Below the pieces are notes generated by a model that saw nothing but the letters and a program-made list of their open reading frames with translations, was not told the DNA's origin and did not search any database. Position numbers and translations under genes: made by a program. From Antedon mediterranea (Eukaryota > Animalia > Echinodermata), in the NCBI RefSeq assembly GCF_964355755.1, contig NC_092672.1, forward strand, positions 8,246,001 through 8,310,000: a stretch of 64,000 nucleotides of DNA, in the 5' to 3' direction. This document shows, in pieces, positions 1-64,000 of the stretch (the first letter of the stretch is position 1; each line of letters starts with the position of its first letter).

Positions 1-467
1 AAATTCCAACGTATGACGTGCGCGTGGCGTTTGTCGTGCGGATAACTAACTCGTCAAAGTGACGAGTTCAAATCTAGTATTTATATTCCAATGATGACAC
101 GATATTCCTGTTCAGAAAGCTTTCATTTTATACGTGTACGCACTCATAACTATAATCTTTGAATTTTATAGTAAACTCATCCAATAAAATGTTATTACTG
201 GAACTTTATTTTGTGTCCATTTTTTTGTCAGTTTATCAAACAAATATATAACCAGCTTTTTTCAGTGACCTTAACTTTAACGTAATTATTAAGGTGAATC
301 GAATAATCTATAGGTTAAACAACTGGCGTTTAATCAATTGAATGAATATATATAGGCCTATATCAGTATATATCACCGGGCGGTTTAGAATTAGTGTTCT
401 TTGCCTACTGTGTTTATATATTATATATATATATTGATGTTACTTGAACGAGTATTTTAACGTTAAG

Positions 468-34004: not shown

Positions 34005-37000
34005 AATATTTGTGAGAAAAACGGCGGATTGTTACTGGGATTCACTTGGTGGGATTATACTAGGGTACCTCGTTAGTCGTCCAGTATAGGTTAGAGTTGG
34101 ACCACTGGTCCCGTTTACTCAGCCCTCATCTTTTAAATTTCAGTATAACTCAATTACGATTGTTAATATATAGTGAAATTTGATATTGTAATTGTGAGAA
34201 AACGGCGGATTGTTCCGGGAAGTCACTTGGTGGGATTATACTAGGGTACCTCCTTAGTCGCCCAGTATAAGTTAGAGTAGGACCACTGGTCCCGTTTACT
34301 CAGCCCTCATCTTTTAAATTTGAATGTAACCCAATTACGATTTTTAAAATATAGTGAAATTTGAAACTGTATCTGTGCAAAAACGGCGGATTGTTCCTGG
34401 GCATCACTTGGCGGGATTATACTAGGGTACCTCCTTAGTCGTCCAGTATAAGTTAGAGTGGGACCACTGGTCCCGTTTACTCAGCCCTCATCTTTTAAAT
34501 CTGAGTGTAACTCAATTACGATTTTAATATTGTTAAATTTGAAACTGTATTTGTGAGAAAATGGCGGATTGTTCCTGGCAGTCACTTGGTGGGATTATAC
34601 TAGGGTACCCCCTTAGTCGTCCAGTATAAGTTAGAGTGGGACCACTAGTCCCGTTTACTCAGCCCTCATCTTTAAATATTGAGTGTAACTCAATCAATTT
34701 TTAAAATATAGTTAAATTTGAAACTGTATTTGTGAGAAAATTGCGGATTGTTCCTGGGAGTCACTTGGTGGGATTATACCAGGGTACCTCCTTAGTCGTC
34801 CAGTATAAGTTAGAGTTGGACCACTGGTCCCGTTTACTCAGCCCTCATCTTTAAAATTTGAGTGTAACTCAATTACGATTAATATTTTAAAATATAGTGA
34901 AATTTGATACTGTATTTGTGAGAAAATGGCGGATTGTTCCTGGGAGTCACTTGGTGGGATTATACTAGGGTACCCCCTTAGTCGTCCAGTATAAGTTAGA
35001 GTGGGACCACTGGTCCCGTTTACTCAGCCCTCATCTTTAAAATTTGAGTGTAACTCATTTACGATTTTTAAAATATAGTGAAATTTGAAACTGTATTTGT
35101 GAGAAAACGGCGGATTGTTCCTGGGAGTCACTTGGTGGGATTATACTAGGTACCTCCTTAGTTGTCCAGTATAAGTTAAAGTGGGACCACTGGTCCCGTT
35201 TACTCAGCCCTCATCTTTAACGTTTGAGTGTAACTCAATTACGATTAATATTTTAAAATATAGTGAAATTTGATACTGTATTAGTGAGAAAATGGAGGAT
35301 TGTTCCTGGGAGTCACTTGGTGGGATTATACTAGGGTACCTCCTTAGTTGTCCAGTTTAAGTTAGAGTGGGACCACTGGTCCCGTTTACTCAGCCCTTAT
35401 CTTTAAAATTTGAGTGTAACTCAATTACGATTAATATTTTAAAATATAGTGAAATTTGATACTGTATTTGTGAGAAAATGGCGTATTGTTCCTGGGAGTC
35501 ACTTGGTGGGATTATACTAGGGTACCCCTTTAGTCGTCCAGTGTAAGATAGAATGGGACCACTGGTCTCGTTTACTCAGCCCTCATCTTTAAAATTTGAG
35601 TGTAACTCATTTACGATTTTTAAAATATAGTGAAATTTGAAACTGTATTTGTGAGAAAACGGCGGATTGTTCCTGAGAGTCACATGGTGGGATTATACTA
35701 GGGTACGTCCTTAGTCGTCCAGTAAAAGTTAGAGTGCGACCACTGGTCCCGTTTACTCAGCCCTCATCTTTTAAATTTGAGTGTAACTCAATTACGATAA
35801 CATTTTTTAAATATAGTGAAAATTGATACTATATTTGTGAGATAATGGCGGATTGTTCCTGGGAGTCACTTGGTGGGATTATACTAGGGTACCTCCTTAG
35901 TTGTCCAGTATAAGTTAGAGTGGGACCACTGGTCCCGTTTACTCAGCCCTCATCTTTAACATTTGAGTGTAACTCAATTACGATTAATATTTTAAAATAT
36001 AGTGAAATTTGATACTGTATTAGTGAGAAAATGGCGGATTGTTCCTGGGAGTCACTTGGTGGGATTATACTAGGGTACCTCCTTAGTTGTCCAGTTTAAG
36101 TTAGAGTGGGACCACTGGTCCCGTTTACTCAGCCCTTATCTTTAAAATTTGAGTGTAACTCAATTACGATTAATATTTTAAAATATAGTGAAATTTGATA
36201 CTGTATTTGTGAGAAAATGGCGGATTGTTCCTGGGAGTCACTTGGTGGGATTAAACTAGGGTACCCCCTCAGTCGTCCAGTATAAGTTAGAATGGGACCA
36301 CTGGTCCCGTTTACTCAGCCCTCATCTTTAAAATTTGAGTGTAACTCATTTACGATTTTTAAAATATAGTGAAATTTGAAACTGTATTTGTGAGAAAACG
36401 GCGGATTGTTCCTGAGAGTCACTTGGTGGGATTATACTAGGGTACACACTAAGTTGTCCAGTATAAGTTAGAGTGGTACCACTGGTCCCGTTTACTCAGC
36501 CCTCATCTTTAAAATTTGAGTGTAACTCATTTACGATTTTTAAAATATAGTGAAATTTGATACTGTATTTGTGAGAAAATGGCGGATTGTTCCTGAGAGT
36601 CACTTGGTGGGATTATACTAGGGAAACTCTTTAATCATCCAGTATAAGTTAGAGTGGGACCACTGGTCCCGTTTACTAAGCCCTCATCTTTTAAATTTGA
36701 GTGTAACTCAATTACGATAACATTTTTAAAATATAGTGAAAATTGATACTGTATTTGTGAGAAAATGGCGGATTGTTCCTGGGAGTCACTTGGTGGGATT
36801 ATACTAAGGTACCTCCTTAGTTGTCCAGTATAAGTTAGAGTGGGACCACTGGTCCCGTTTACTCAGCCCTCATCTTTAACGTTTGAGTGTAACTCAATTA
36901 CGATTAATATTTTAAAATATAGTGAAATTTGATACTGTATTTGTGAGAAAATGGCGGATTTTTCCTGAGAGTCACTTGGTAGGATTATACTAGGGTACCC

Positions 37001-40000
37001 CCTTAGTCGTCCAGTATAAGTTAGAGTGGGACCACTGGTCCCGTTTACTCAGCCCTCATCTTTAAAATTTAAGTGTAACTCAATTACGATTAATATTTTA
37101 AAATATAGTGAAATTTGATACTGTATTTGTGAGAAAATGGCGGATTGTTCCTGGGAGTCACTTGGTGGGATTATACTAGGGTACCCCCTTAGTCGTCCAG
37201 TATAAGTTAGAATGGGACCACTGGTCCCGTTTACTCAGCCCTCATCTTTTAAATTTGAGTGTAACTCATTTACGATTTTTAAAATATAGTGAAATTTGAA
37301 ACTGTATTTGTGAGAAAACGGCGGATTGTTCCTGAGAGTCACTTGGTGGGATTATACTAGGGTACACCCTAAGTCGTCCAGTATAAGTTAGAGTGGGACC
37401 ACTGGTCCCGTTTACTCAGCCCTCATCTTTAAAATTTGAGTGTAACTCATTTACGATTTTTAATATATAGTGAAATTTGATACTGTATTTGTGAGAAAAG
37501 GGCGGATTGTTCCTGAGAGTCACTTGGTGGGATTATACTAGGGAAACTCTTTAATCATCCAGTATAAGTTAGAGTGGGACCACTGGTCCCGTTTACTAAG
37601 CCCTCATCTTTTAAATTTGAGTGTAACTCATTTACGATTTTTAAAATATAGTGAAATTTGAAACTGTATTTGTGAGAAAATGGCGGATTGTTCCTGGGAG
37701 TCACTTGGTGGGATTATACTAGGGTACCCCCTTAGTTGTCTAGTATAAGTTAGAATGGGACCGCTGGTCCCGTTTACTCAGCCCTCTTCTTTAAAATTTG
37801 AGTGTAACTCATTTACGATTTTTAAAATATAGTGAAATTTGATACTGTTATTGTAAGAAAACGGCGGATTGTTCCTGAGAGTCACTTGGTGGGATTATAC
37901 TAGGGTACCTCCTTAGTCGTACAGTAAAAGTTAGAGTGGGACCACTGGTACCGTTTACTCAGCCCTCATCTTTTAAATTTGAGTGTAACTCATTTACGAT
38001 TTTAAAAATATAGTGAAATTTGATACTGTATTTGTGAGAAAATGGCGGATTGTTCCTAGGAGTCACTTGGTGTGATTATACAAGGGTACCTCCTTAGTTG
38101 TCCAGTATAAGTTAGAGTGGGACCACTGGTCCCGTTTACTCAGCCCTCATCTTTAAAATTTGAGTGTAACTCATTTACGATTTTTAAAATATAGTGAAAT
38201 TTGATACTGTATTTGTGAGAAAACGGCGGATTGTTCATGAGAGTCACTTGGTGGGATTATACTAGGGTACCCCCTTAGTCGTCCAGTATAAGTTAGAGTG
38301 GGTCCACTGGTCCCGTTTACTCAGCCATCATCTTTCAAATGTCAGTGTAACTCATTTACGATTTTTAAAATATAGTGAAATTTGATACTGTATTTGTGAG
38401 AAAACGGCGGATTGTTCCTGAGAGTCACTTGGTGGGATTATACTAGGGTGCCTCCTTAGTCGTCCAGTATAAGTTAGAGTGGGACCACTTGTCCCGTTTA
38501 CTCAGCCCTCATCTTTAAAATTTGAGTGTAACTCAATTACGATTAATATTTTAAAATATAGTGAAATTTGATACTGTATTTGTGAGAAAATGGCGGATTG
38601 TTCCTGGGAGTCACTTGGTGGGATTATACTAGGGTACCCCCTTAGTCGTCCAGTATAAGGTAGAATGGCACCACTGGTCCCGTTTACTCAGCCCTCATCT
38701 TTAAAATTTGAGTGTAACTTATTTACGATTTTTAAAATATAGTGAAATTTGAAACTGTATTTTTGAGAAAACGGCGGATTGTTCCTGAGACTCACTTGGT
38801 GGGATTATACTAGGGTACACCCTAAGTTGTCCAGTATAAGTTAGAGTGGGACCACTGGTCCCGTTTACTCAGCCCTCATCTTTAAAATTTGAGTGTAACT
38901 CATTTACGATTTTTAAAATATAGTGAAATTTGATACTGTATTTGTGAGAAAACGGCGGATTGTTCATGAGAGTCACTTGGTGGGATTATACTAGGGTACC
39001 CCCTTAGTCGTCCAGTATAAGTTAGAGTGGGTCCACTGGTCCCGTTTACTCAGCCATCATCTTTCAAATGTCAGTGTAACTCATTTACGATTTTTAAAAT
39101 ATAGTGAAATTTGATACTGTATTTGTGAGAAAACGGCGGATTGTTCCTGAGAGTCACTTGGTGGGATTATACTAGGGTGCCTCCTTAGTCGTCCAGTATA
39201 AGTTAGAGTGGGACCACTTGTCCCGTTTACTCAGCCCTCATCTTTAAAATTTGAGTGTAACTCAATTACGATTAATATTTTAAAATATAGTGAAATTTGA
39301 TACTGTATTTGTGAGAAAATGGCGGATTGTTCCTGGGAGTCACTTGGTGGGATTATACTAGGGTACCCCCTTAGTCGTCCAGTATAAGGTAGAATGGCAC
39401 CACTGGTCCCGTTTACTCAGCCCTCATCTTTAAAATTTGAGTGTAACTTATTTACGATTTTTAAAATATAGTGAAATTTGATACTGTATTTGTGAGAAAA
39501 GGGCGGATTGTTCCTGAGAGTCACTTGGTGGGATTATACTAGGGAAACTCTTTAATCATCCAGTATAAGTTAGAGTGGGACCACTGGTCCCGTTTACTAA
39601 GCCCTCATCTTTTAAATTTGAGTGTAACTCAATTACGATAACATTTTTAAAATATAGTGAAAATTGATACTGTATTTGTGAGAAAATGGCGGATTGTTCC
39701 TGGGAGTCACTTGGTGGGATTATACTAAGGTACCTCCTTAGTTGTCCAGTATAAGTTAGAGTGGGACCACTGGTCCCGTTTACTCAGCCCTCATCTTTAA
39801 CGTTTGAGTGTAACTCAATTACGATTAATATTTTAAAATATAGTGAAATTTGATACTGTATTTGTGATAAAATGGCGGATTGTTCCTGGGAGTCACTTGG
39901 TAGGATTATACTAGGGTACCCCCTTAGTCGTCCAGTATAAGTTAGAGTGGGACCACTTGTCCCGTTTACTCAGCCCTCATCTTAAAAATTTAAGTGTAAC

Positions 40001-43000
40001 TCAATTACGATTAATATTTTAAAATATAGTGAAATTTGATACTGTATTTGTGAGAAAATGGCGGATTGTTCCTGGGATTCACTTGGTGGGATTATACTAG
40101 GGTACACCCTTAGTCGTCCAGTATAAGTTAGAATGGGACCACTGGTCCCGTTTACTCAGCCCTCATCTTTAAAATTTAAGTGTAACTCATTTACGATTTT
40201 TAAAATATAGTGAAATTTGAAACTGTATTTGTGAGAAAACGGCGGATTGTTCCTGAGAGTCACTTGGTGGGATTATACTAGGGTACACCCTAAGTCGTCC
40301 AGTATAAGTTAGAGTGGGACCACTGGTTCCGTTTACTCAGCCCTCATCTTTAAAATTTGAGTGTAACTCATTTACGATTTTTAAAATATAGTGAAATTTG
40401 ATACTGTATTTGTGAGAAAAGGGCGGATTGTTCCTGAGAGTCACATGGTGGGATTATACTAGGGAAACTCTTTAATCATCCAGTATAAGTTAGAGTGGGA
40501 CCACTGGTTCCGTTTACTAAGCCCTCATCTTTTAAATTTGAGTGTAACTCAATTACGATAACATTTTTAAAATATAGTGAAAATTGATACTGTATTTGTG
40601 AGAAAATGGCGGATTGTTCCTGGGAGTCACTTGGTGGGATTATACTAAGGTACCTCCTTAGTTGTCCAGTATAAGTTAGAGTGGGACCACTGGTCCCGTT
40701 TACTCAGCCCTCATCTTTACCGTTTGAGTGTAACTCAATTACGATTAATATTTTAAAATATAGTGAAATTTGATACTGTATTTGTGAGAAAATGGCGGAT
40801 TGTTCCTGGGAGTCACTTGGTAGGATTATACTAGGGTACCCCCTTAGTCGTCCAGTATAAGTTAGAGTGAGACCACTGGTCCCGTTTACTCAGCCCTCAT
40901 CTTTAAAATTTGAGTGTAACTCATTTACGATTTTTAAAATATAGTGAAATTTGAAACTGTATTTGTGAGAAAACGGCGGATTGTTCCTGAGAGTCACTTG
41001 GTGGGATTATACTAGGGTACACCCTAAGTCGTCCAGTATAAGTTAGAGTGGGACCACTGGTCCCGTTTACTCAGCCCTCATCTTTAAAATTTGAGTGTAA
41101 CTCATTTACGATTTTTAAAATATAGTGAAATTTGATACTGTATTTGTGAGAAAAGGGCGGATTGTTCCTGAGAGTCGCATGGTGGGATTATACTAGGGAA
41201 ACTCTTTAATCATCCAGTATAAGTTAGAGTGGGACCACTGGTCCCGTTTACTAAGCCCTCATCTTTTAAATTTGAGTGTAACTCAATTACGATAACATTT
41301 TTAAAATATAGTAAAAATTGATACTGTATTTGTGAGAAAATGGCGGATTGTTCCTGGGAGTCACTTGGTGGGATTATACTAAGGTACCTCCTTAGTTGTC
41401 CAGTATAAGTTAGAGTGGGACCACTGGTCCCGTTTACTCAGCCCTCATCTTTAACGTTTGAGTGTAACTCAATTACGATTAATATTTTAAAATATAGTGA
41501 AATTTGATACTGTATTTGTGAGAAAATGGCGGATTGTTCCTGGGAGTCACTTGGTAGGATTATACTAGTGTACCCCCTTAGTCGTCCAGTATAAGTTAGA
41601 GTGAGACCACTGGTCCCGTTTACTCAGCCCTCATCTTTAAATTTTGAGTGTAACTCATTTACGATTTTTAAAATATAGTGAAATTTGAAACTGTATTTGT
41701 GAGAAAACGGCGGATTGTTCCTGAGAGTCACTTGGTGGGATTATACTAGGGTACACCCTAAGTCGTCCAGTATAAGTTAGAGTGGGACCACTCGTCCCGT
41801 TTACTCAGCCCTCATCTTTAAAATTTGAGTGTAACTCATTTACGATTTTTAAAAAATAGTGAAATTTGATACTGTATTTGTGAGAAAACGGCGGATTGTT
41901 CCTGAGAGTAACTTGGTGGGATTATACTAGGGAACCTCTTTAATCATCCAGTATAAGTTAGAGTGGGACCACTGGTCCCGTTTACTCAGCCCTCATCTTT
42001 AAAATTTGAGTGTAACTCATTTACGATTTTTAAAATAAAGTGAAATTTGAAACTGTATTTGTGAGAAAACGGCGGATTGTTCCTGGAAGTCACTTGGTGG
42101 GATTATACTAGGGTACCTCCTTAGTTGTCCAGTATAAGTTAGAGTGGGACCACTGGTCCCATTTACTCAGCCCTCATCTTTAACGTTTGAGTGTAACTCA
42201 ATTACGATTAATATTTTAAAATATAGTGAAATTTGATACTGTATTTGTGAGAAAATGGCGGATTGTTCCTGGGAGTCACTTGGTGGGATTATACTAGGGC
42301 ACCCCCTTAGTTGTCCAGTATAAGTTAGAATGGGACCACTGGTCCCGTTTACTCAGCCCTCTTCTTTAAATTTTGAGTGTAACTCATTTACGATTTTTAA
42401 AATATAGTGAAATTTGAAACTGTATTTGTGAGAAAATGGCGGATTGTTCCTGGGAGTCACTTGGTGGGATTATACTAGGGTACCCCCTTAGATGTCCAGT
42501 ATAAGTTAGAATGGGACCACTGGTCCCGTTTACTCAGCCCTCTTCTTTAAAATTTGAGTGTAACTCATTTACGATTTTTAAAATATAGTGAAATTTGAAA
42601 CTGTATTTGTGAGAAAACGGCGGATTGTTCCTGGGAGTCACATGGTGGGATTATACTAGGGTACATCCTTAGTCGTCCAGTATAAGTTAGAGTGGGACCA
42701 CTGGTCCCGTTTACTAAGCCCTCATCTTTTAAATTTGAGCGTAACTCAATTACGATAACATTTTTAAAATATAGTGAAAATTGATACTGTATTTGTGAGA
42801 AAATGGCGGATTGTTCCTGGGAGTCACTTGGTGTGATTATACTAAGGTACCTCCTTAGTTGTCCAGTATAAGTTAGAGTGGGACCACTGGTCCCGTTTAC
42901 TCAGCCCTCATCTTTAACCTTTGAGTGTAACTCAATTACGATTAATATTTTAAAATATAGTGAAATTTGATACTGTATTTGTGAGAAAATGGCGGATTGT

Positions 43001-43860
43001 TCCTGGGAGTCACTTGGTAGGATTATACTAGGGTACCCCCTTAGTCGTCCAGTATAAGTTAGAGTGGGACCACTGGTCCCGTTTACTCAGCCCTCATCTT
43101 TAAAATTTGAGTGTAACTCATTTACGATTTTTAAAATATAGTGAAATTTGAAACTGTATTTGTGAGAAAACGGCGGATTGTTCCTGAGAGTCACTTGGTG
43201 GGATTATACTAGGGTACACCCTAAGTTGTCCAGTATAAGTTAGAGTGGGACCACTGGTCCCGTTTACTCAGCCCTCATCTTTAAAATTTGAGTGTAACTC
43301 ATTTACGATTTTTAAAAAATAGTAAAATTTGATACTGTATTTGTGAGAAAACGGCGGATTGTTCCCGAGAGTCACTTGGTGGGATTATACTAGGGAACCT
43401 CTTTAATCATCCAGTATAAGTTAGAGTGGGACCACTGGTCCCGTTTACTCAGCCCTCATCTTTAAAATTTGAGTGTAACTCAATTACGATAAAAATTTTT
43501 AAATATAGTGAAAATTGATACTGTATTTGTGAGAAAATGGCGGATTGTTCCTGGGAGTCACTTGGTGGGATTATACTAGGGTACCTCCTTAGTTGTCCAG
43601 TATAAGTTAGAGTGGGACCACTGGTCCCGTTTACTCAGCCCTCATCTTTTAAATTTGAGTGTAACTCAATTACAATTTTTAAAATATAGTTAAATTTGAA
43701 ACTGTATTTGTGAGAAAACGGCGGATTGTTCCTGGGAGTTAATTGGTGGGATTATACTAGGGTACCTCCTTAGTTGTCCAGTATAAGTTAGAGTAGGACC
43801 ACTGGTCCGTTTACTTAGGCCTCATCTAAAATTTGAGTGGCTCAATTATGATTTTTTAAT
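34005..43860 (+). repeat. Tandem satellite, ~181-186 bp monomer, ~54 copies (left arm)
   Basis: Monomer: ATTTGTGAGAAAAYGGCGGATTGTTCCTGRGAGTCACTTGGTGGGATTATACTAGGGTACC...GGGACCACTGGTCCCGTTTACTCAGCCCTCATC...GAAATTTGATACTGT. Copies are highly homogeneous, with more diverged ones at the edges. Confidence 0.98.
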
Positions 43861-45513
43861 ATAGTTATATAGCACAGTGAAGTTTTTTTTAAATTAAATA
43901 TATTGTTAATCGCAAAAGAATGAATAATTTCTTGGTAATCTAGCATTTTTTGTATACAAGGATCATATAAAATACGTTCCCGGTTATACGCTTAACACGC
44001 TGTGTTTTTTAACACATTTACGGCCGCTATCTTGTTGGATCCCCCTCCTTTTGGAATCACCTTTGAGTCTGAAGTACCCCCTCTAGCCTTCGGCTTATTA
44101 CATCTCTCTGGATGCCACAGATTGTACATTAGGCGGCACCAGATAGATAACTTTGTGAGGCCAGTTTTTACTTTATTTACATAAATTATTCCATTTTCCA
44201 TGAAACAACCCTTATGATTAAAAACAGATACTTCGAGCCGGACCGCAAAATTTAAACCATTTTAAATCAAAATAGAAGGCGTTATACCTATGTTTTTCCA
44301 GAGCCATATATAGCAATATTTTAAGTCAATATGAATATGATTATGAACTGTTTACGTCGTTTTTTTTTTATCTTTTCAGAACCTTCGTATAGAAAGTGAC
44401 CGAATAACATAATGCAGTGCTGCAATACGTTGTTCGTTGGTTAATACACTTGCAATACTAAGCCTGCTTGTTGGTTCGATGGGAAAATAACTATTAGCGA
44501 AAAATAATAATTAGAATGGACACCGTAAACTGAAGTTTCTATCGAAACGATTTGTAGGCCTACAATATGTTATATTATACGTATACTTGTTAAATAAAAG
44601 TTGTATAAAAGAGTCTATTTTGTAAAATGACGTAATATTTTGAAATTCTATGTAATTGTATAAATAAGAGTATCTTATAAAAATATCGATAAATGTTTTA
44701 TAGGTTTTTAATAGAATTTCTAAAGAGTTTTCAACACTTTTAGAAACTTTATATATAAGAAATTATATCAAAAGTCTATAAATTCTTTAGAAATATCTAA
44801 AGATATATCTATAAAATTTCTATAAACTTCTATAATTCTATACACAATCTATAACAGCTCTATTGAAAAGTCTATCGGAATTTTATAGAATATATATAGA
44901 AGATATAATAACTGTATATAAAAAGCTTTAGAAACTCTAAAAAAATTCTAAAGATATTAAATATATATAATTTGTGTATATATAGAATATTTATATAGAA
45001 ATTCTATACACATTTTTTATTTACGGCTAATATCGGACGTTTAAGAGATGGAAAGGAACAAATTTTGGCTTGGATGTGTGATACAGTATAGGTAAAGCCA
45101 GGGAGAAATAACTGTCAGATTTATGTTTATTAGTAGGTAGCAGAAACAAATCTACAGTTTAGACCTTCAAAACATTCATTATTGTCTGAAATCCAATAAT
45201 TGTTTTTTGTTCATCTACTAGCAAAAGACACCTGCCCCAGTGTGGGAGTTGCTTCATAGGGACCATGGTTGCAGTGATTTAATCATAGGTTAAATCCTTC
45301 ACAGAAGAATTCTGTAAATGTATTCATTATATCTCCGAAACCCATCTCAGCTCCTCCTCCCAACCAACATCCACAGACCCTCCTTGAGACAGTTCAAATG
45401 TAATCAATTATAAATCAGAGTAATTTGATATATCATTACCTCTAAATTCCATTATCTCCTAATATATTAGAACTTTTCCCTCCCCCTTCCCACCTGAAAT
45501 GAAACCTTCCTTC

Positions 45514-50227: not shown

Positions 50228-50900
50228 ATCGATATGAATATTGAATGACGCAATACGAATGAAATGTTTTGAATAAAATGTTTTGAATGAACTGTTTTGA
50301 ATAAAATGTTTTTTAATTCTTGGTAGCTTGACCGCGTACCGGACCTCTGAGCCACGTTAGCTTTTTCCCCTACTAAATGGATCCAAGCCCAGGTCTGTTA
50401 GGATTCGTTGTAAGGATCCATTGATGACAGCGGGTTGAGAGAGGAGAAGAGGGTACCCAGGCTTAAGAGGTTAAGAAAAAAAATCGCGAGCGGGAATGAC
50501 ATACGCCGCCAATAGTTTGACTTTTCAAATTCAATACAACATTTTTCATTCAAAACATTCGTTCAAAACATTTCATTCAAAACATTCAATTCAAAACATT
50601 CAATTCAAAACATTTCATTCAAAACATTTCATTTAAAACATTTCATTTAAAACATTTCATTCAAAACATTCATTTCAAAACATCTCATTCAAAACATTCT
50701 ATTCAAGGCATTCAATTCAAAGAATTTCATTAAAAATATTTCAGTCAAAACATTTCATTCACAACTTTCATTTCAAACATTTCATTTCAAACATTTCATT
50801 CAAAACATTTCATTCAAAACATTTCATTCAAAACATTTCGTTGAAAAGAAAACATTCAATTCAAAGCATTTCATTCAAAAAATTGCATTCATATCGATGC
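50228..50900. repeat. Small foldback-like structure: 14-bp CATTCAAAACATTT array (50545-50885) with a short inverted copy (50257-50312)
   Basis: CATCGATATGAAT (~50228) and ATTCATATCGATG (~50887) form an inverted pair flanking the inverted 14-mer arrays. Confidence 0.65.
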
Positions 50901-51689: not shown

Positions 51690-51911
51690 GTCTAAAGCTG
51701 TAGTTGTCCTAAGGAGTAGTTGTAGGCCTACGTTGGGCAGTTGTCTCAGGGGATAGTTGTCCTAATGGGTAGCTAGAGGGTTTTTGTCCTATGGAGTAAT
51801 GGTCCTAGGGGATAGTTGTCCTGAGAGGGGGGTTGTTGTCCTAGAAGGGTGATTGTTCAGGAGGTAATTGTCCGGGTGGTAGTTGTCCAGGGAGTAGTTG
51901 TCCTAGACCCG
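51690..51911 (+). repeat. Degenerate ~15-bp GGTAGTTGTCCT repeats ending in TGTCCTAGACCCG; probable single MITE arm
   Basis: About 12 copies of (A/T)GTTGTCC/AATTGTCC units. Confidence 0.6.
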
Positions 51912-52900
51912 TCTTCAATATTTGTGTGTATAATGACTAAAAGAACCATAAAGTCATTTGAGGTGTCTAAAAAACTCAGATCTAGAAAATTCAGATCTCA
52001 GATATATCTGAGTTTTCTAGACCGTGATTCATTGCATTAATAATACTGTGGTAAATCTGCCTAAAAACCTTATATATTTCAGGTAATCATGATTGTGAGC
52101 ACTATTTGTTTAATCATCCTAATTTTGCTCATAATTAAACAAGGCTTACTCACAAACGCTAGAGTGTATTTTGTTTTATTCATTAACTCTCCTTAGTTTT
52201 ATATATTTTTTTATTATTTGTATTGTCTTAAAACTAACTAGACCACGATTAAATGTGTGATTGTGTAACATGTATTTCATGTTATTTATTTTTAAAATGC
52301 AAAGGAAAAACTAGCCTGAAACAGTTAAGAAAAATCTGCGATTTTTGATATTATTATTTAATAAAGTAATATATGTGGTATTTTGATTATGCAATACAAT
52401 AATTGTTATTCGCTTTCATTCATCCAATTTTATTCCTAATCCCAGCTTGGTTGTTAACGATAACAAACAATTTTATCGCACAGATACACATTATTTTTAG
52501 ATATCCATCGCAAATTCTATTTAAGATATCAATTTGTTGATACAGTAATATAATTTAAAAAGGCAGAGGAAAACTCTAAAATAAATTGTATTATTGAATT
52601 TGTATTCAAAGTTGTAGCTTGTAAATAAATAATTATTATATCATTACCATCATCTTGAATGCAAATATTATGAGTCTAAAAATTACTTTGATTGTTGAAA
52701 CTGCATTCCTCTAAGTTGTAAAGTGAATACAATTATGTTTCATTATCTCGAGTATAAATGGCCCTTCCCATCAAATTCCCATATAAAACATTAACTAATT
52801 ATGTTAATTTTGTTGTCAGGCTGATGACTCTCATCGTCGCCGCCGTCGGCGTTGTGATGGTATCGTAAAAACGAAACGGAAACAAGTTGACTATTTAAAC

Positions 52901-55900
52901 ATGAAGGCGTCTTTCTCAAGACATATTACATCAACTACAGATATTACAAGTGCGAGCAGTGAGTCAGTATGGGGTACAATTTTAAAAGAAATAAAATGGT
53001 TTAATACTCAAAACAACAGAAAGTACTTGAAAGTAATATGGCGATCAAACAGAGGCGGTGTACGCGAATACACGGAGCGAAATTGGGAAAATCCTGAAAC
53101 CAATAGTGCACTATATCAACTAGATGTCCAAGAAGAAGAACAGGAATATCAGCAAAATGGAGAAATAGAAGTCCAAACACCTTTGCAGACAGAATTTCGT
53201 CGAAGCAAAAGAAATAGGAAGGTTAAACGATTTTCTGAATGTTGGGAGACCGACACGTTTTGCATATGCCGGCGGGCTTGGAGAGGAGATGCAATTCGTC
53301 CAGCTATACAATGTGACCAGTGCTTGAAATGGTATCATTTCGATTGCATAAACATGCCAGAATATGCTACTGTAGATTTGCTGCATTGCAGATTCTATTG
53401 TGGATTTACAGGGTGCAGTAGCAGACAAAAGATGATCATAAGTGATGTAATTTCTACCTCAAAAAAATCAGAAAGTGACGTAGATGAACACTTAAGTAGA
53501 CCATCTCGCAACACCGATGTCGACAGGGATGAAGTCGAAAATGAATACATGACGTCATTCATGAATGTCCCATTAAAAAGTAAAGAAGAGAGCGATGCCG
53601 ATGAACACTTAAGTAGAGCATCTCGCTATACCGATGGCGACAGGGATAAGGTAGAAAATGAAAGCAAGACGTCATTCATGAATGTCCCATTAAAAAGTGA
53701 AGAAGAGAGCGACGCAGATGAACATTTAAGTACAGCATCTCGCAATACGGATGTCGACAGGGATGAGGTAGAAAATGAGGGAAAGACGTCATTCATGAAT
53801 GTCCCATTAAAAAGTGAAGAAGAGAGCGACGCAGATGAACATTTAAGTACAGCATCTCGAAATACGGATGTCGACAGGGATGAAGTCGAAAATGAAGGCA
53901 AGACGTCATTCATGAATTTCCCATTAAAAAGTAAAGAAGAGAGCGACGCAGATGAACACTTCAGTACAGCATCTCGCTATACCGATGTCGACAGGGATGA
54001 AATCGAAAATGAAGGCAAGACGTCATTCATGAATGTCCCATTAAAAAGTAAAGAAGAGAGCGACGCAGATGAACACTTAAGTAGAGCATCTCGCAATACG
54101 GATGTCGACAGGGATGAGGTAGAAAATGAAGGAAAGACGTCATTCATGAATTTCCCATTAAAAAGTGAAGAAGAGAGCGACGCAGATGAACATTTAAGTA
54201 TAGCATATCGATATACCGATGGCGACAGGGATGAAATCGAAAATGAAGGCAAGACGTCATTCATGAATGTCCCATTAAAAAGTGAAGAAGAGAGCGACGC
54301 AGATGAACACGTCAGTACAGCATCTCGCTATACCGATGTCGACAGGGATGAAATCGAAAATGAAGGCAAGACGTCATTCATGAATGTCCCATTAAAAAGT
54401 AAAGAAGAGAGTGACGCAGATGAGCACTTCAGTACAGCATCTCGCTATACCGATGTCGACAGGGATGAAATCGAAAATGAAGACAAGACGTCATTCATGA
54501 ATGTCCCATTAAAAAGTAAAGAAGAGAGCGACGCAGATGAACACTTCAGTACAGCATCTTGCAATACCGATGTCGACAGGGATGAAGTCGAAAATGAAGA
54601 CATGACGTCATTCATGAGGAATGTACCAATAGAAAAGGCTACTATAGGCAAATGTCTTGGCGAAGAAATCGGAGAACAAGTAATCAAAGAATTCCAAATT
54701 CCAAGAACTGCACATTTTAAGATAACAAAAGAAAAATGGAGCGAAATATGTAAACACCTAAGAGGAAAGTACTTTGAAAAGGGGCAATGGCACGAACAAT
54801 TTATTAAAGGTTTAAAAACATCCAACCCGTACTGCGTCCTTATGATAAGACGACATCGTGTAAGCATACGTAAACGAAGAGCAACTAGTAAACCACTTCT
54901 CACTGTAGATCTGTACTGCAAGTTTGACCACTGCCCCATCACTGCCAAACTGGAACTGGATACGAATTTTAAGGCAAATGTGAGGTACAGTCATGAAATA
55001 GTAATGCATCATTTAGGGGAGCAACATGCTAGACCTATCCGTGGTAGCGAAAGAGAAACATTAAAAGAAGCATTCAGACATGGCATAACTCCTTTAAACG
55101 AATACCTAAAAAGACTTGGTGAAAAAGACGCGACTCACGTAGTTTTGGCAGGCAATGCTGATGATCTTGGTACTAGTAAGCAAACACTTCGACAGGTATC
55201 TCATGAGGCAAATACTTCATGCATACTTCACAGTGACGAGCTTACAAGCCTACACCAAATGAAAAAAAAAATGGAGTCAGAGAGTCCAAACAAAAAAGTG
55301 AAAGGCTTTATACAGTTCATATCTTTATCCCCTACTGTTGTATTTTACTGGACCGAGGCCGGTATTCGCCTATGGCATGATTTGTCCCAGAAAGATGCGG
55401 CAGTAATAGATGCGACAGGCAATGTTGTCCGTTTGTCAGAAGAAAGAAAGAAGTTTTTGTACTATGAGGTATGCATGAGGAGCCCGATAGAAGGAGAATC
55501 TCCGATACCAATAATGGGTATGCTAAGTACAACTCATACAGCTACAATAATACGTTTCTGGATATCAGAATTCAGAAGATGCGAAAAGCTACTTTTTGGA
55601 TATCAGGGTGTTTCTATTCCTCGTCAAATAAATATGGACAGAGCCATGGCCTTTATAATGGCAATCCTATCGGAGTTTAATAACGAGACTGTTAAGGAAT
55701 TCCTGGATCGTTGTTGGCGGATTGTCACTGGAAATGCATTAGATAATGACATCGAGCGTAAAACTGTCCCTCACGCATGTACTTCACATGTAATGAAAGA
55801 TGTTAAGAAATCATGCAAGAAGCATTATGCGGGAAATATGGACTATGGATTATACTGCTTTAGCACAATTCTTAATGCTGACAAATTGGTAGAGGCTGAA

Positions 55901-58712
55901 CAAGCTCTGTTTGATATGGCTGTTGTGTTATATGGGAAAAAACTGACAGTGGAGGTAAAAGAGGCAAGTGAAAGGATATTTGACAGGATCAATTCTCTCT
56001 CGAAGCAAGTTTCTCAAGAGGTGAACAGAGATGTACGTGGGTCGGCTAATGTGACTGTGGAAGAAGATACAGTATCCGGAGTTAACAAGACAGAAGAAGA
56101 GTTTCTTCATTTTGCCACAGGTATTTGTTATTAATTGTAATATACATTCTTAATGTTCTACTGTGGATCCATTGTAAAAGATGGTAAACATCCGTTACAA
56201 TAACCGATAGTTTTATTTTGTTTTTATTGTGTTCGTTTTCATTACTTATATAATTATTATTATAAACACCATCCCTTGTACTAATTGTACGTTGCGACAT
56301 TCTTTGCCTTTAATGACATCTAACATCTTTAACAAATGATAAAAGGAAATTATATAAATCTTCCTAAAAATATTGTCTTGATGATGATTATTGCATGATT
56401 GCATGTTTTATTTTTATTTACGCAATAGCTATAAAAACAAAAACCTTTTTTTCTGTTGTTTAGGTACTTGCTTTGCAAGGTGGGCAAAGCAGACAATTAA
56501 AGGTGCAAGAGAAACTGTAACAGAGGGAGACGAAGCTATTGAAAACAATGCTCGATTTGGACCTAAATTTATGGAGGATATTCAAAAGCTGCTCCTACCA
56601 ACGCTTCCACTTTGGTCCTGTTTAATGCTTGGAAATCTACAGCGGCATGGAAGTTCAACCCCGTACAAAAAATACAAATTTGTGGAAAAAAGATACCCCA
56701 GTAAAACAACAAGTGTACAAGAAGGAAGATTCAATCAATTGAAAACATACATTCTTCAGAACAAATCCCACAGCCGTGTCGATGTGTTCTCGGAAAAATT
56801 GAAAGACACAACAAAGGCGCTGCAGACTTTAGCACTAAAAAACGCTTTGAAAAAGAGGACCAGAAAGGTTAGAGGAAAGAAGACAGTCCTCGTGGAAGAG
56901 AAATGGAATAAGATGCGCAAACAGCCCGACACATTAAGAGACAAAAAATACGGAAAATATCAACAGCGGCCAACAAAACCTTTCAAAGTTACGAAATCGG
57001 ACAAGAAAAGGGCAAGTGAAACGGTGATTGAGGGTAAGCAGAAGAAAAATAAACCCAATAAGGACAACACTTCTTACCTAATTCATGATGTGGATGTTGA
57101 AGTTGGACCAACAGGAACGAAAAAGAAAGAAGAATGTAGGCCTACATCACGTGTACATCATTCACTGAACCTTGAACCAAAATTCATTCCACTTCTAAAC
57201 TTGCACAACAACTGCTGGTTCAATGCCAACGTGCAAGCACTGGTATCGACAGCATCTTTAGACATTCTGTTGAAAGTACCTGACAGTACTTGGAAAAAAC
57301 CCCAAGAAATGAAATTGTTCGAGTTCCTTAAGATCTACAAGACCAACAAATCAATTAAATATAACAATCTTGAACCATTGTTGCGTGTACTTTCGGCTGA
57401 CGGACTTCAGTATGGACAACAAAATGATGCTCATGAATTTATTTCACGCCACATAGGCGTAATGATGTCCACTATTCGGCTTAACAAAATTGAAATTGAA
57501 GAAAATGTAACATGCAACAACTGTGATGACACCAAATCAAATGTTCAAACAATCACGGAGATCTTTGTTCCTGTACTTAACGATTATGATGCAGTCAACA
57601 TGCAAAACGAAGTTTTGAAACTGACAGATCCTACAGAACATGAAGCAATATGTGAAAATTGTGGATGTTTGGGCATGTTTTTAACATGCAAGAAAATGAA
57701 AACTGTTCCAAATGTGTTATTGATTGTAATGCAAAGAAACCAAAGCAGAGGGAAGATGCTGGCGGCTATAGAACCCACAAAAGAGTTATTAATTACACAC
57801 ACGGGTACTGACATTAAGTGTAGGTTCAAATTAAAGTCTGTTATCGTTCACAGAGGTGATACATGTAACACTGGTCACTATGTTACAATGGTACCGGATC
57901 ACTCCAGTGATATGATTAGTTGGGTACTCTGCGATGACCACATCATTGAAAACGCCCGACCACATGATATAGCTGCAGTTTACGACCAAAGCTACATAAT
58001 GTACTACGAGAAAGCAGAAGGAATTGATGAAACTGTCGGCTGTCAATCAGACCAAGAAAAGATGAATACTTCTAAAAGTAACACTGAAGTTATGGAAGCA
58101 ATCAAACGTAACTGTGAAAGTAAACCAAATGAAATAATGCAGAAAATAAACAGAATTGAAATTAGATATGCTGACGTTACAACCCTACTTATCAACAACT
58201 GGCTAAACGACGTCATAGTCAATACATATCTCTGGCTTGTACATACAAATTCAAAACAGCCTGGAAGTATAAACAAGGTGTATCCCTTTCCTACACAATG
58301 GCACCAAAAAGTCACAGGGAGAGGAGAGACATCACTAAGTTCATGGACGAGAAACACGAATCTGCAAAATTTCGACTGGCTGTTATTTCCAATTAGCCAG
58401 AGTGCACATTGGTTTCTCATCGGAATTAACCTCAGGCATCGTACAGTATCGACATTCGATTCATTACAAGGGGTACGAACACGTGAAATGAACTTAGCTC
58501 TGAAAGTAGTAAATGAGGTTATGGAAAAAAGGAGTCCGTTTACAATAAAGGTTATATCTACACCACGACAGCACAACATGGACGACTGTGGGGTGTATTT
58601 GTGCTATTTTGCAAACTACTTAAGCACGGTAGAGGAAGTCGTAGAAATACCAGATATTGATGCGGAAGAATACAGATACAATATGATTCTTGAACTGTAT
58701 AAAGGCTGTTAA
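52901..58712 (+). CDS. Spliced ~1,822-aa NOF/Mutator-like transposase fusion: PHD finger + 10x39-aa acidic repeats + Zn-finger DNA-binding domain + DDE core + USP (C19) + Ulp1/SENP (C48); exons 52901-56120 and 56464-58712
   Basis: A phase-1 intron at 56121-56463 (ACAG|GTATTT...TTTAG|GT) joins the 1077-aa and 773-aa ORFs in frame. PHD: CICRR..IQCDQCLKWYHFDC..FYC..C. Transposase: VIDATG, INMDRAMA, HACTSH (CxxH), TTSVQEGRFNQLK. USP: LLNLHNNCWFNANVQAL, QQNDAHEF, VIVHRGDTCNTGHYV, WVLCDD. Ulp1: WLNDVIVN, AHWFLI, FDSL, QHNMDDCGVY. The frame is open upstream to an acceptor at 52819, so further 5' exons are possible. Confidence 0.88.
53465..54630 (+). repeat. 117-bp coding tandem repeat x10 (SxEESDADEHxSxASRxTDVDRDExENEGKTSFMNVPLK)
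   Basis: Directly visible in DNA and protein; all copies are in frame. Confidence 0.95.
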
Positions 58713-59629
58713 CAATGCCGTACCATCCCTTATAAGTAAGGTTGACAAAGTTTCACTTGATATTCTTGTTGTTTGGAAGAGAATTCAGATGTTCTTTAAT
58801 ATATTTTTATATAAAAGTGATGTGTTAGATGTGACAAATGTAAGCGTATTTCTTAACATACATTTTTCGTTATGCAAACATTCTAATTTTAATTACAAAG
58901 TGGTACATATTTAGTTGCAAAATCAAAGAACAATTACTTAATTTTAATCACTTAATGCACATTTACCAAAAATACAAGGCAACCATAATTATTATTTACA
59001 AAATGATTTTATAAAGTGTATTTTTGCGATACATTATTATTTTTTTTTTCTTTTAATTCATTACTCTCTTATTTTTGAGAGAGTATTATCGTGTTTCTTC
59101 TTATTTGTTTAATAGTTACGTTACCTTTATCTCTTAATTTTGTATTATGTACCGTATGTGATATACTTTTCAAAGTGAAACTAGTTTGTGTACACATTTT
59201 TACTCCCGTGTGTTGCATAATACATACAATAACTTAAAGTAGGCCTATTGTATGTGACATGATTTTCCCTTAGTATTAAGTGATAATGAATATAGGGTTT
59301 ACCTTCTGTTAACTGAAGGTACATGATTTTCGGAAATTATGTAGGCCTAAACTGCTGGTACTAAAAACGATTTTTTTTTCAATATGTTACTTCAATAAAG
59401 ACATTTACAAAACTTGAAGTAAATAAATGTGTTCAATCTCTTATTTTGTCTCTATCCATCTTAGACCAGTAGTTGGAGTCTATTTATACGGAACGACTAG
59501 GTAGTGGACGATAAATGATACATTTTGTTCTACCACTGAAATCGGAGGTTTTCTCACAAATAAAAACGCTCTAACCTATACTGAACGACTAAGTAAACAC
59601 GCATAGTATAGTATAATCCCACCAAGTGA

Positions 59630-62600
59630 GTAAACGGGACCAGTGGTCGCACTCTAACTTATACTGGACGACTAAGGAGGTACCCTAGTATAATCCCACC
59701 AAGTGACTCTCAGGAACAATCCGCCATTTTCTCACAAATACAGTATCAAATTTCACTATATTTTAAAAATCGTAAATGAGTTACACTCAAATTTTAAAGA
59801 TGAGGGCTGAGTAAACGGGACCAGTGGTCCCACTCTAACTTATACTGGACAACTAAGGAGGTACCCTTGTATAATCCCACCAAGTGACTCCCAGGAACAA
59901 TCCGCCATTTTCTTACAAATACAGTATCAAATTTCACTATATTTTTTAAATCGTAAATGAGTTACACTCAAATTTAAAAGATGAGGGCTGAGTAAACGGT
60001 ACCAGTGGTCTCACTCTAACTTATACTGTACGACTAAGGAGGTACCCTAGTATAATCCCACCAAGTGACTCTCAGGAACAATCCGCCGTTTTCTCACAAA
60101 TACAGTTTCAAATTTCACTATATTTTAAAAATCGTAAATGAGTTACACTCAAATTTTAAAGATGAGGGCTGAGTAAACGGAACCAGTGGTCCCACTCTAA
60201 CTTATACTGGACGACTAAGGGGGTACCCTAGTATAATCCCACCAAGTGACTGCCAGGAACAATCTGCCATTTTCTCACAAATACAGTATCAAATTTCACT
60301 ATATTTTAAAATATTAATCGTAATTGAGTTACACTCAAATTTTAAAGATAAGGGCTGAGTAAACGGGACCAGTAGTCCCACTCTAACTTAAACTGGACAA
60401 CTAAGGAGGTACCCTAGTATAATCCCACCAAGTGATTCCCGGGAACAATCCGCCATTTTCTCACAAATACAGTATCAAATTTCACTATATTTTAAAATAT
60501 TAATCGTAATTGAGTTACACTCAAACGTTAAAGATGAGGGCTGAGTAAACGGGACCAGTGGTCTCACTCTAACTTCTACTGGACAACTAAAGAGGTACCC
60601 TAGTATAATCCCACCAAGTGACTCCCAGGAACAATCCGCCATTTTCTCACAAATACAGTATCAATTTTCACTATATTTTAAATTTTTTTATCGTAATTGA
60701 GTTACACTCAAATTTAAAAGATGAGGGCTGAGTAAACGGAACCAGTGGTCGCACTCTAACTTATACTGGACGACTAAGGACGTACCTTAGTATAATCCCA
60801 CCATGTGACTCCCAGGAACAATCCGCCGTTTTCTCACAAATACAGTATCTAATTTCACTATATTTTTAAAATCGTAAATGAGTTACACTCAAATTTAAAA
60901 GATGAGGGCTGAGTAAACGGGACCAGTGGTCTCACTCTAACTTATACTGGACGACTAAGGAGGTACCCTAGTATAATCCCACCAAGTGACTCCCAGGAAC
61001 AATCCGCCATTTTCTCACAAATACAGTATCAAATTTTACTATATTTTTTAAATCGTAATTGAGTTACACTCAAATTTAAAAGATGAGGGCTGAGTAAACG
61101 GGACAAGTGGTCCCACTCTAACTTATACTGGACGACTAAGGGGGTACCCTAGTATAATCCCACCAAGTGACTCCCAGGAACAATCCGCCATTTTCTCACA
61201 AATACAGTATCAAATTTCACTATATTTTAAAATATTAACCGTAATTGAGTTACACTCAAATTTAAAAGATGAGGCCTGAGTAAACGGAACCAGTGGTCGC
61301 ACTCTAACTTATACTGGACGACTAAGGACGTACCTTAGTATAATCCCACCATGTAACTCCCAGGAACAATCCGCCGTTTTCTCACAAATACAGTATCTAA
61401 TTTCACTATATTTTTAAAATCGTAAATGAGTTACACTCAAATTTTAAAGATGAGGGCTGAGTAAACGGGACCAGTGGTCCCACTCTAACTTATACTGGAC
61501 GACTTAGGGTGTACCCTAGTATAATCCCACCAAGTGACTCTCAGGAACAATCCGCCGTTTTCTCACAAATACAGTTTCAAATTTCACTATATTTTAAAAA
61601 TCGTAAATGAGTTACACTCAAATGTTAAAGATGAGGGCTGAGTAAACGGGACCAGTGGTCCCATTCTAACTTATACTGGACGACTAAGGGGGTACCCTAG
61701 TATAATCCCACCAAGTGACTCCCAGAAACAATCCGCCATTTTCTCACAAATACAGTATCAAATTTCACTATATTTTAAAATATTAATCGTAATTGAGTTA
61801 CACTTAAATTTTAAAGATGAGGGCTGAGTAAACGGGACCAGTGGTCCCACTCTAACTTATACTGGACGACTAAGGGGGTACCCTAGTATAATCCTACCAA
61901 GTGACTCCCAGGAACAATCCGCCATTTTCTCACAAATACAGTATCAAATTTCACTATATTTTAAAATATTAATCGTAATTGAGTTACACTCAAACGTTAA
62001 AGATGAGGGCTGAGTAAACGGGACCAGTGGTCCCACTCTAACTTATACTGGACAACTAAGGAGGTACCTTAGTATAATCCCACCAAGTGACTCCCAGGAA
62101 CAATCCGCCATTTTCTCACAAATACAGTATCAATTTTCACTATATTTTAAAAATGTTATCGTAATTGAGTTACACTAAAATTTAAAAGATGAGGGCTTAG
62201 TAAACGGGACCAGTGGTCCCACTCTAACTTATACTGGATGATTAAAAAGTTTCCCTAGTATAATCCCACCAAGTGACTCTCAGGAACAATCCGCCCTTTT
62301 CTCACAAATACAGTATCAAATTTCACTATATTTTAAAAATCGTAAATGAGATACACTCAAATTTTAAAGATGAGGGCTGAGTAAACGGGACCAGTGGTCC
62401 CATTCTAACTTATACTGGACGACTAAGGGGGTACCCTAGTATAATCCCACCAAGTGACTCCCAGGAACAATCCGCCATTTTCTCACAAATACAGTATCAA
62501 ATTTCACTATATTTTAAATTATTAATCGTAATTGAGTTACACTCAAATTTTAAAGATGAGGGCTGAGTAAACGGGGCAAGTGGTCCCACTCTAACTTATA

Positions 62601-64000
62601 CTGGACGACTAAGGAGGCACCCTAGTATAATCCCACCAAGTGACTCTCAGGAACAATCCGCCGTTTTCTCACAAATACAGTATCAAATTTCACTATATTT
62701 TAAAAATCGTAAATGAGTTACACTGAAATTTGAAAGATGATGGCTGAGTAAACGGGACCAGTGGACCCACTCTAACTTATACTGGACGACTAAGGGGGTA
62801 CCCTAGTATAATCCCACCAAGTGACTCTCATGAACAATCCGCCGTTTTCTCACAAATACAGTATCAAATTTCACTATATTTTAAAAATCGTAAATGAGTT
62901 ACACTCAAATCTTAAAGATGAGGGCTGAGTAAACGGGACCAGTGGTCCCACTCTAACTTATACTGGACAACTAAGGAGGTACCCTTGTATAATCCCACCA
63001 AGTGACTCCCAGGAACAATCCGCCATTTTCTCACAAATACAGTATCAAATTTCACTATATTTTTAAAATCGTAAATGAGTTACACTCAAATTTTAAAGAT
63101 GAGGGCTGAGTAAACGGTACCAGTGGTCCCACTCTAACTTCTACTGTACGACTAAAGAGGTACCCTAGTATAATCCCACCAAGTGACTCTCAGGAACAAT
63201 CCGCCGTTTTCTTACAATAACAGTATCAAATTTCACTATATTTTAAAAATCGTAAATGAGTTACACTCAAATTTAAAAGATGAGGGCTGAGTAAACGGGA
63301 CCAGTGGTCCCACTCTAACTTATACTGGACGACTAAGGAGGTACCCTAGTATAATCCCACCAAGTGACTCCCAGGAACAATCCGCCATTTTTTCACAAAT
63401 ACAGTATCCAATTTCACTATACTTTAAAAATCGTAAATGAGTTACACTCAAATTTTAAAGATGAGGGCTGAGTAAACGGAACCAGTGGTCCCACTCTAAC
63501 TTATACTGGACGACTAAGGGGGTACCCTAGTATAATCCCACCAAGTGACTGCCAGGAACAATCCGCCATTTTCTCACAAATACAGTATCAAATTTCACTA
63601 TATTTTAAAATATTAATCGTAATTGAGTTACACTCAAATTTTAAAGATAAGGGCTGAGTAAACGGGACCAGTGGTCCCACTCTAACTTAAACTGGACAAC
63701 TAAGGAGGTACCCTAGTATAATCCCACCAAGTGACTCCCGGGAACAATCCGCCATTTTCTCACAAATACAGTATCAAATTTCACTATATTTTAAAATATT
63801 AATCGTAATTGAGTTACACTCAAACGTTAAAGATGAGGGCTGAGTAAACGGGACCAGTGGTCCCACTCTAAATTTACCTGGACGACTAAGGGGGTACCCT
63901 AGTATAATCCCACCAAGTGACTCCCAGGAACAATCCGCCATTTTCTCACAAATACAGTATCAATTTTCACTATATTTTAAATTTTTTTATCGTAATTGAG
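59630..64000 (-). repeat. Same satellite in reverse orientation, >=24 copies (right arm, truncated by the window)
   Basis: Reverse complement of the left-arm monomer (GAGTAAACGGGACCAGTGGTCCCACTCTAAC...AATCCGCCATTTTCTCACAAAT). Degenerate partial units lie at 59480-59630. Confidence 0.98.

Follow-up and report, generated by a model that had tools for sequence, protein, structure and literature searches.

Here we describe a gene in a 64,000-nucleotide stretch of the Antedon mediterranea genome (NCBI RefSeq assembly GCF_964355755.1, contig NC_092672.1, positions 8,246,001 to 8,310,000 of the forward strand; hereafter the window, in which positions are counted from the first nucleotide), which we file, on motifs and the modelled fold of a relative, as an intact gene for the transposase of a DNA transposon of Rehavkus/NOF type, in the Mutator-like element (MULE) class. 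Its predicted product carries on one chain a PHD finger, the transposase core, a ubiquitin-specific protease (USP, peptidase C19) and a Ulp1/SENP protease (Peptidase_C48). We find that both proteases keep their catalytic motifs, and comparison with relatives indicates that the tandem is a trait of this transposase family and not a one-off capture. The function that we favour, and to which we give an even chance, is that the two proteases strip SUMO and ubiquitin locally at the transpososome, in protection and repair.

Protease and PHD domains of the predicted fusion protein

The original prediction placed PHD, transposase, USP and Ulp1 domains in one protein, and this arrangement is borne out: three of the four exceed their Pfam cut-offs (Table 1), and the NOF/MULE-type core is recognized by its motifs and by the modelled fold of a relative. 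The catalytic motifs that it listed are likewise all present, with N1319, C1324, QQND, H1545 and D1564 intact in the USP, and H1722, D1739, Q1776 and C1782 intact in the Ulp1 domain, which also has W1653 and the WLND and HW motifs. The whole USP domain finds 30 matches in the Protein Data Bank (PDB) at E ≤ 1, best among them USP46, USP12 and USP36; the first part of the domain, searched alone, finds none. The Ulp1 domain aligns residue by residue with human SENP1 (78.7 bits), SENP1 and SENP2 lead its structural matches, and no SENP8/NEDP1 entry is present among the 19 at E ≤ 0.001. Because SENP1/2 lead and SENP8 is absent from these matches, SUMO rather than NEDD8 is the likely substrate, and the deNEDDylase activity that had been proposed as an option is disfavoured.

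The best solved relatives of the PHD finger are those of Spp1, PHF2, CFP1, KDM7A, PHF8, BPTF and DIDO, which we take to be readers of the active mark H3K4me3. The aromatic cage of such domains is formed at Tyr/Phe, Met and Trp positions; the window copy keeps F120 and W144 and has Ala135 at the Met position. The earlier view of a chromatin reader that leads the proteases to repressive marks is weakened: what the relatives of the domain presumably read is an active rather than a repressive mark, and the window copy alone of 19 has Ala at this cage position.

Conservation of the protease pair

Relatives with the same layout are readily found. Both PF00443 and PF02902 are present in 6 of 16 matches of one search for relatives, and in two proteins of 1,841 and 1,821 residues (P0037 and P0041) each of the four domains exceeds its Pfam cut-off; the same is true of P0044 and P0067, except that their PHD finger falls slightly under its own. 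A Pfam scan of 30 of the 50 representatives of at least 900 residues identifies nine with both proteases, three of these also with a PHD finger at E < 0.01. When family-built profiles are used instead, 19 of 150 representatives reach at least 500 residues past the transposase: 15 of them have both proteases, three only the USP, and one a Macro domain in their place. The tandem is, on this sequence evidence, a family trait. The match totals of 4,163, 2,144 and 530 are not family sizes, as the profile includes part of the USP; a search with the start of exon B, restricted to proteins of more than 1,309 residues, returned none, but it was insensitive, such proteins being found by the other searches. 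Hosts of relatives include the mussel Mytilus coruscus (cluster of P0001), the fish Coilia grayii and the cnidarian Clytia hemisphaerica, whose protein is annotated 'ubiquitinyl hydrolase 1'; one relative labelled as a bacterial metagenome-assembled genome (MAG) is probably host contamination.

We compared the active sites in full-length domain sets (24 of 43 USP matches and 20 of 24 Ulp1 matches, window protein included). The USP Asn, Cys and His are kept in 24 of 24 and the Asp/Asn in 23 of 24, with 10 of 288 columns invariant, while the Ulp1 His, Gln and Cys, and likewise its Asp/Asn, are kept in 20 of 20, with 7 of 216 columns invariant; these sets were picked by family-built profiles, which favours intact copies and counts against our reading of the numbers. 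Identity of the window protein to the relatives compared is 21-28% for the USP and 16-20% for Ulp1. This pattern points to selection maintaining protease catalysis and makes decay as cargo unlikely. Captures of Ulp1, OTU and UCH domains are frequent in many transposons, and the pair might on that ground be captured host fragments without a role, a view to which we give hardly any weight, as the catalytic residues stay invariant where identity to the window protein is 16-28%, and the in-frame fusion has been maintained over a wide clade.

The window protein differs from most of its relatives in the region between the proteases. In 17 of 21 two-protease relatives 259-314 residues separate USP and Ulp1, as against 35 in the window protein, and in nine aligned relatives (P0036-P0039, P0041, P0044, P0050, P0067 and P0074) the spacer consists of a second USP fold that lacks the catalytic boxes (profile match probability 95.8) and is absent from the window protein. 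The window Ulp1 domain matches any family Ulp1 at no more than 35 bits, and the Ulp1 domain of P0074 matches SENP1 at 55 bits, which suggests either a fresh capture or slow evolution in the window lineage; in an Ulp1 tree the window protein falls outside the clade of its neighbours, on long branches with weak support. One relative (P0155) possibly has the reverse order, Ulp1 then USP, its Ulp1 being an 18-bit match to the family profile with no Pfam support.

Further domains accompany the pair in some relatives. A BAG domain, a co-chaperone module of Hsp70, follows the PHD region and precedes the transposase core in P0037, P0042, P0048, P0049 and P0067, above the Pfam cut-off; P0140 ends in a Macro domain (35.9 bits), and weak SprT-like matches (18 bits, under the cut-off) are found at the C-termini of the related transposases P0070 and P0079. 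BAG, SprT-like and Macro domains are modules of proteostasis and DNA-damage signalling.

Gene structure and predicted splicing

Two stop-free frames, at 52808-56134 (1,108 residues) and 56388-58712 (774 residues), cover the gene; 200 shuffles of the transposase-gene stretch give no frame longer than 187 residues. The predicted intron between them begins GTATTT and ends TTTAG at a pyrimidine-rich acceptor, and its removal gives, from the ATG at 52901 to the stop at 58712, a product of 1,822 residues with no internal stop, as had been claimed. Among 57 in-frame GT-AG pairs, 56121/56463 scores best (663.1 bits, runner-up 656.5) against a profile that excludes the window protein. All 95 related cores examined continue as one protein past the junction point, a few of them as spliced gene models, and the closest relative (P0003, 54% identity over the searched region) aligns through the junction without a gap. 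Of the transposase residues, D837 (55409), D913 (55637) and C960xxH963 (55778-55789) lie on exon A, and because W1124 (56613) and E1160 (56721) lie on exon B, the transposase would be incomplete without the splice. A splice joining both frames is thus predicted with strong support from homology. The 56120/56464 joint is absent among the 15 listed of 100 joints in sample contigs, and one run guessed to be RNA (X1) touches exon B with three short pieces but does not span the joint; the contig runs X2, X3 and X5 are one sample, possibly the source of the window itself, and are not independent.

The protein probably begins upstream of 52901, with an additional first exon and a full length of about 1,850 residues or more, because similarity to P0049, P0047 and P0037 begins 10-17 residues ahead of the Met at 52901 and a phase-0 acceptor is found at 52819. 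No candidate for this exon was found. The conserved N-terminal domain that spans the start is probably DNA-binding.

A product of this length, with low-complexity linkers, might be thought to use its proteases on itself, cutting the ~1,850-residue chain into working pieces in the manner of the related adenovirus-type proteases, and one relative's Ulp1 does match Peptidase_C5 weakly, under the cut-off. USP and SENP enzymes, however, need folded ubiquitin or SUMO ending in Gly-Gly, and the sole Gly-Gly of the window protein, at residue 52, is not kept in the aligned relatives; we regard self-processing as very improbable.

Class of the transposase

The core residues were counted in 96 core-covering proteins among 165 collected: D837 is kept in 93, D913 in 95, C960 and H963 in 93 each, E1160 in 94 and W1124 in 87. 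A model of P0003 based on 50 aligned sequences (mean pLDDT 71.8, most of the core >90) finds the ISCth4 transposase first in a comparison with solved structures (Z 12.1, rmsd 5.0, 236 aligned), ahead of integrases, Hermes, the P element and RAG1 (Z 6.9); we take ISCth4 to belong to the IS256/Mutator family. An earlier model of exon A only, from eight sequences, was too poor for a structure search (pLDDT 49.6). The relative's model and the core counts together give the RNase H DDE fold with a helical insertion, the CxxH motif and the conserved Trp that characterize MULE/IS256 enzymes, and the nearest protein-atlas clusters are MULE (score 0.94).

We file the gene under Rehavkus, which stands in or beside the MULE superfamily and which we take to be the FB-NOF group. 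By eye, the core carries a long helical insert and the motif series DATG / D / (C or D)xxH / PxW / E..F..(L/I/V)K, and it shares DATG, a Tyr-containing strand, S.H, FW, D...A, (C/D)xxH, PxW and E..F..K with six Rehavkus rows (Rehavkus-1_DY, -1_HR, -1_TC, -3_TC, -2_NVi and 1_AP; PMC13359780 supplement). Rehavkus elements are defined by a PHD finger in a single open reading frame (ORF) set, a minisatellite that precedes the 3' terminus, and target-site duplications of 9 bp (PMC6446971); their terminal inverted repeats measure 26-400 bp. In the window we find a PHD finger (24.1 bits), a single gene after the predicted splice and tandem repeats ahead of the 3' terminus. Two results weigh against the assignment. 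No Pfam transposase family, PF10551 (MULE) included, matches either ORF at E ≤ 1, and a Foldseek search with the P0003 model gives nothing at E ≤ 0.001, its top rows being Hermes, RAG1 and ISCth4. On profile evidence the PF10551 blank excludes the canonical MULE clades, to which Rehavkus serves as the outgroup; an NCBIfam scan gave no useful match.

Satellite arrays and copies of the gene

The gene lies between two arrays of a 181/186-bp satellite that face each other and are 93-97% complementary. Degenerate satellite motifs begin 70 bases past the first AATAAA behind the gene, and the right array grows from them, an arrangement that one would expect at the 3' end of a Rehavkus element. Rehavkus-like elements of Tribolium are reported to have satellite-filled inverted termini, sometimes >11 kb (10.1101/2024.12.02.626372, PMC10218199). 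The inverted arrays that the original prediction called the element's own satellite arms are real; as arms of one and the same element they are candidates. Left and right units are as distant from each other as units within an array (11.6, 12.3), and the best mirror register, a single anti-diagonal, has 8.5 differences per unit against a mean of 12.0. Speaking against a single element are the inner flanks of the two arrays, which have no similarity, the other repeats that fill 44-52 kb between the left array and the gene, and the great abundance of the 181/186-bp repeat in sample contigs.

Those contigs contain the gene unchanged and two diverged, internally deleted forms (joints at 55379-55608 and 55823-56412), and intact plus deleted copies fit a low-copy transposon family; contig depths are not copy numbers. 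The contigs also bear on whether the gene has instead been domesticated as a single intact host editor of chromatin SUMO and ubiquitin, with the arrays as unrelated neighbours. Contigs over the gene are identical and at depths like those of unique flanks (~145 in X3), an intron is present where many relatives run on, and no termini are seen within the window. Even so we think domestication improbable, since diverged, deleted copies occur in the same sample, the entire DDE/CxxH set is kept, relatives of the same layout are scattered over unrelated assemblies, and degenerate satellite motifs lie directly 3' of the gene.

Proposed function of the proteases

Tightly DNA-bound proteins are marked for removal by SUMO-targeted ubiquitination by RNF4 and then extracted by p97, and SENP and USP enzymes reverse both modifications. 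Because both proteases share a chain with the transposase, their substrates would lie at the element ends or at the target. In the sequence of events that we favour, the transposase would, like Muta1, bind the ends of the element and its subterminal repeats, and would be held on H3K4me3 chromatin by the PHD finger, though perhaps only weakly in the window copy. Cut-and-paste transposition as in Muta1 would follow, leaving hairpins to host repair; for Muta1 itself, end binding aided by subterminal repeats and hairpins left for the host are described in PMC5499845. The two tethered isopeptidases would undo the SUMO-then-ubiquitin marking of tightly DNA-bound proteins for extraction and degradation, and would also counter the SUMO-then-ubiquitin signals that organise repair at breaks; the likely gain is that the transpososome would last longer and that host repair would be turned to the advantage of the element. 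A repair role for transposase-borne Ulp1 and OTU domains was proposed by Bao et al. in 2010 (PMC2836005, in the part covered), and the BAG, SprT-like and Macro add-ons of relatives point to proteostasis and DNA damage at least as much as to anti-silencing.

Besides the bias towards intact copies noted above, several observations weigh against a local role at the transpososome. The cage Trp is kept in 19 of 19 family PHD fingers and Met or Tyr in 18 of 19, the Ala of the window copy being the sole exception; many relatives in the tree show no protease, most of them short or cut-off proteins; and no element ends or target-site duplication are seen within the 64-kb window, whose end the right array passes. 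Conserved catalysis, moreover, does not name a substrate and fits anti-silencing equally well.

Anti-silencing would have the transposase coat the satellite and strip the SUMO that recruits SetDB1, together with repressive ubiquitin, so that transcription of the element feeds forward. We hold this to be possible but doubtful. Both proteases are conserved and the right array abuts the 3' end of the gene, as such a role would have it, and the parts of two papers covered here supply precedent: SUMO is required in piRNA-guided silencing (10.1101/533091), and some plant VANC anti-silencing genes bear a conserved Ulp1 whose role is unknown (PMC13317346). VANC, however, is a separate gene, whereas the window proteases are fused to the cutting enzyme, and the left array lies ~9 kb from the 5' end of the gene, with unrelated repeats between and an inner flank unlike the right one. 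The resemblance of the PHD finger to H3K4me3 readers means, further, that silenced chromatin would not attract it. Protection or repair at the transpososome and anti-silencing can both hold.

A wider proposal, which we advance somewhat more tentatively still, is that animal Rehavkus-type transposons repeatedly built an eraser kit in which a deSUMOylase and a deubiquitinase, whichever of them comes first, are often joined by a second USP fold that is dead and sometimes by BAG, SprT-like or Macro domains. The kit would be carried by a transposase that docks on H3K4me3 and is massed on satellite arms of kilobase length, and would dissolve SUMO/ubiquitin-dependent silencing and removal; in the window lineage a fresh SENP1-like domain would have replaced the older one. 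If true, the eraser kit would be an enzymatic anti-silencing system of an animal DNA transposon.

Other features of the window

Table 1. Location of the gene, its predicted domains and the adjoining repeats in the window
Feature	Position	Strand	Basis
Left 181/186-bp satellite array, inverted; candidate left arm	34007..43865	-	Repeat and complementarity analysis
Exon A	52820..56120	+	ORF 52808-56134; candidate acceptor 52819; first in-frame ATG 52901
Conserved N-terminal domain	52850..53068	+	phmmer, 34.3 bits to P0049, 26.9 to P0037
PHD finger	53261..53416	+	PF00628, 24.1 bits, cut-off 24
In-frame 117-bp tandem repeat, 9.8 copies	53470..54617	+	Acidic 39-residue repeat encoded, 30% D+E
Rehavkus/NOF-type MULE transposase core (as filed), intron-spanning	54629..57020	+	Motifs, fold of a relative, atlas MULE clusters
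Predicted GT-AG intron, 343 nt, phase 1 on both sides	56121..56463	+	Splice phase, join, profile score
Exon B: transposase end, USP, Ulp1, stop codon	56464..58712	+	ORF, Pfam, joined translation
USP (peptidase C19)	57192..58007	+	PF00443 (UCH), 74.2 bits, cut-off 23.9
Ulp1/SENP (Peptidase_C48), SENP1-like	58161..58709	+	PF02902, 68.5 bits, cut-off 20.7
AATAAA (59394, 59422), then degenerate satellite motifs (59464-59626) into right array	59394..59626	+	Motif scan
Right 181/186-bp satellite array, past window end; candidate subterminal repeats	59627..64000	+	Repeat analysis

The DNA of the window is AT-rich and of animal type, and to the left of the element lie genes for an SLC7-type transporter and SH3BP5, both split by introns. 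An amino-acid permease at 438-2097 (+) is read in two ORFs that overlap at 1342-1373 in different frames, possibly through a frameshift or a short intron, and host-gene features at 13939-14811 (+) and 23301-27732 (-) comprise SH3BP5 exons and an unassigned 290-residue frame. A 2-kb unit occurs twice, at 31824-33703 (+) and 5059-7080 (-), with 80% identity, the copy at 31824-33703 ending ~300 bases outside the left array. The unit contains a cyclin-like uninterrupted ORF at 31910-33202 (Cyclin_N 17.8 bits, below the cut-off; atlas Cyclin_N clusters, score 0.95), whose second copy (5059-7080) is split over two frames with 92% identity over 100 residues; the unit may be a mobile one with a captured cyclin. 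Between the arrays lie a small foldback element at 47367-49371 (inverted ends 84% identical over 142 bases, internal repeats of 19, 23 and 52 bp) and short inverted or tandem repeat elements at 50213-50891 and 51700-51910 (a 14-bp unit in 24.6 copies and a 15/20-bp unit), which are abundant in sample contigs.

Discussion

Each of the add-ons described here is known singly on transposons. Some Repbase entries for Rehavkus carry Ulp1. The USP, or the USP and Ulp1 pair, is absent from the parts of the Rehavkus descriptions covered, and the literature covered, outside which stand Repbase Reports and most subscription journals, yielded no account of both proteases on one MULE-type transposase. The architecture, which the original prediction allowed might be that of a common NOF family, is indeed common within its clade and was not found catalogued in that literature, Repbase aside.

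The closest parallels share one protease or one principle each, as far as the parts of these sources covered go. Mutator elements with Ulp1 in hydra, lancelet and plants, KIU/VANC included, are transposon genes with a captured Ulp1 (PMC2836005, PMC13317346). KIU/VANC has a separate anti-silencing gene with a single protease, whereas the window proteases are a fusion to the transposase, so that the gene is not of VANC type, although it may work in a like manner. Ginger1 transposases carry Ulp1, OTU or Ulp1 plus PHD on an integrase-like core, one protease each, unlike the pair in the window (PMC2836005). A Trichomonas protein (XP_001314237.1) joins transposase_11 to peptidase C19, a USP likewise captured but by an unrelated transposase class (PMC2836005), and for Helitron-like elements, also of an unrelated class, UCH, OTU or C48 are listed singly, with no tandem on a MULE-type enzyme (PMC11417382).

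A more distant likeness is to the RAG1/RAG2 recombinase, in which a DDE enzyme with a helical insertion is combined with an H3K4me3-reading PHD finger and a ubiquitin-system domain, RAG2 having the PHD and RAG1 a RING. The recombinase differs in bearing a ubiquitin ligase rather than erasers, in being split over two proteins and in its derivation from Transib.

The presence of Ulp1, OTU and USP domains on transposases has been on record from 2010 or earlier, and the papers covered demonstrate no function for them. This family is hidden in the databases, its transposase having no Pfam match and one relative being named 'ubiquitinyl hydrolase 1'. The window copy is well suited to an assay, as it is intact and compact, lacks the dead second USP and has a SENP1-like domain of predictable specificity, and the question can be put with two point mutants in one protein. 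A USP and SENP tandem kept, with invariant active sites, over very long evolutionary distances would mean that these elements face the SUMO and ubiquitin systems of the host acting jointly, and, if the anti-silencing reading is true, the family would be to animals what VANC is to plants, but working by proteolysis of the tags.

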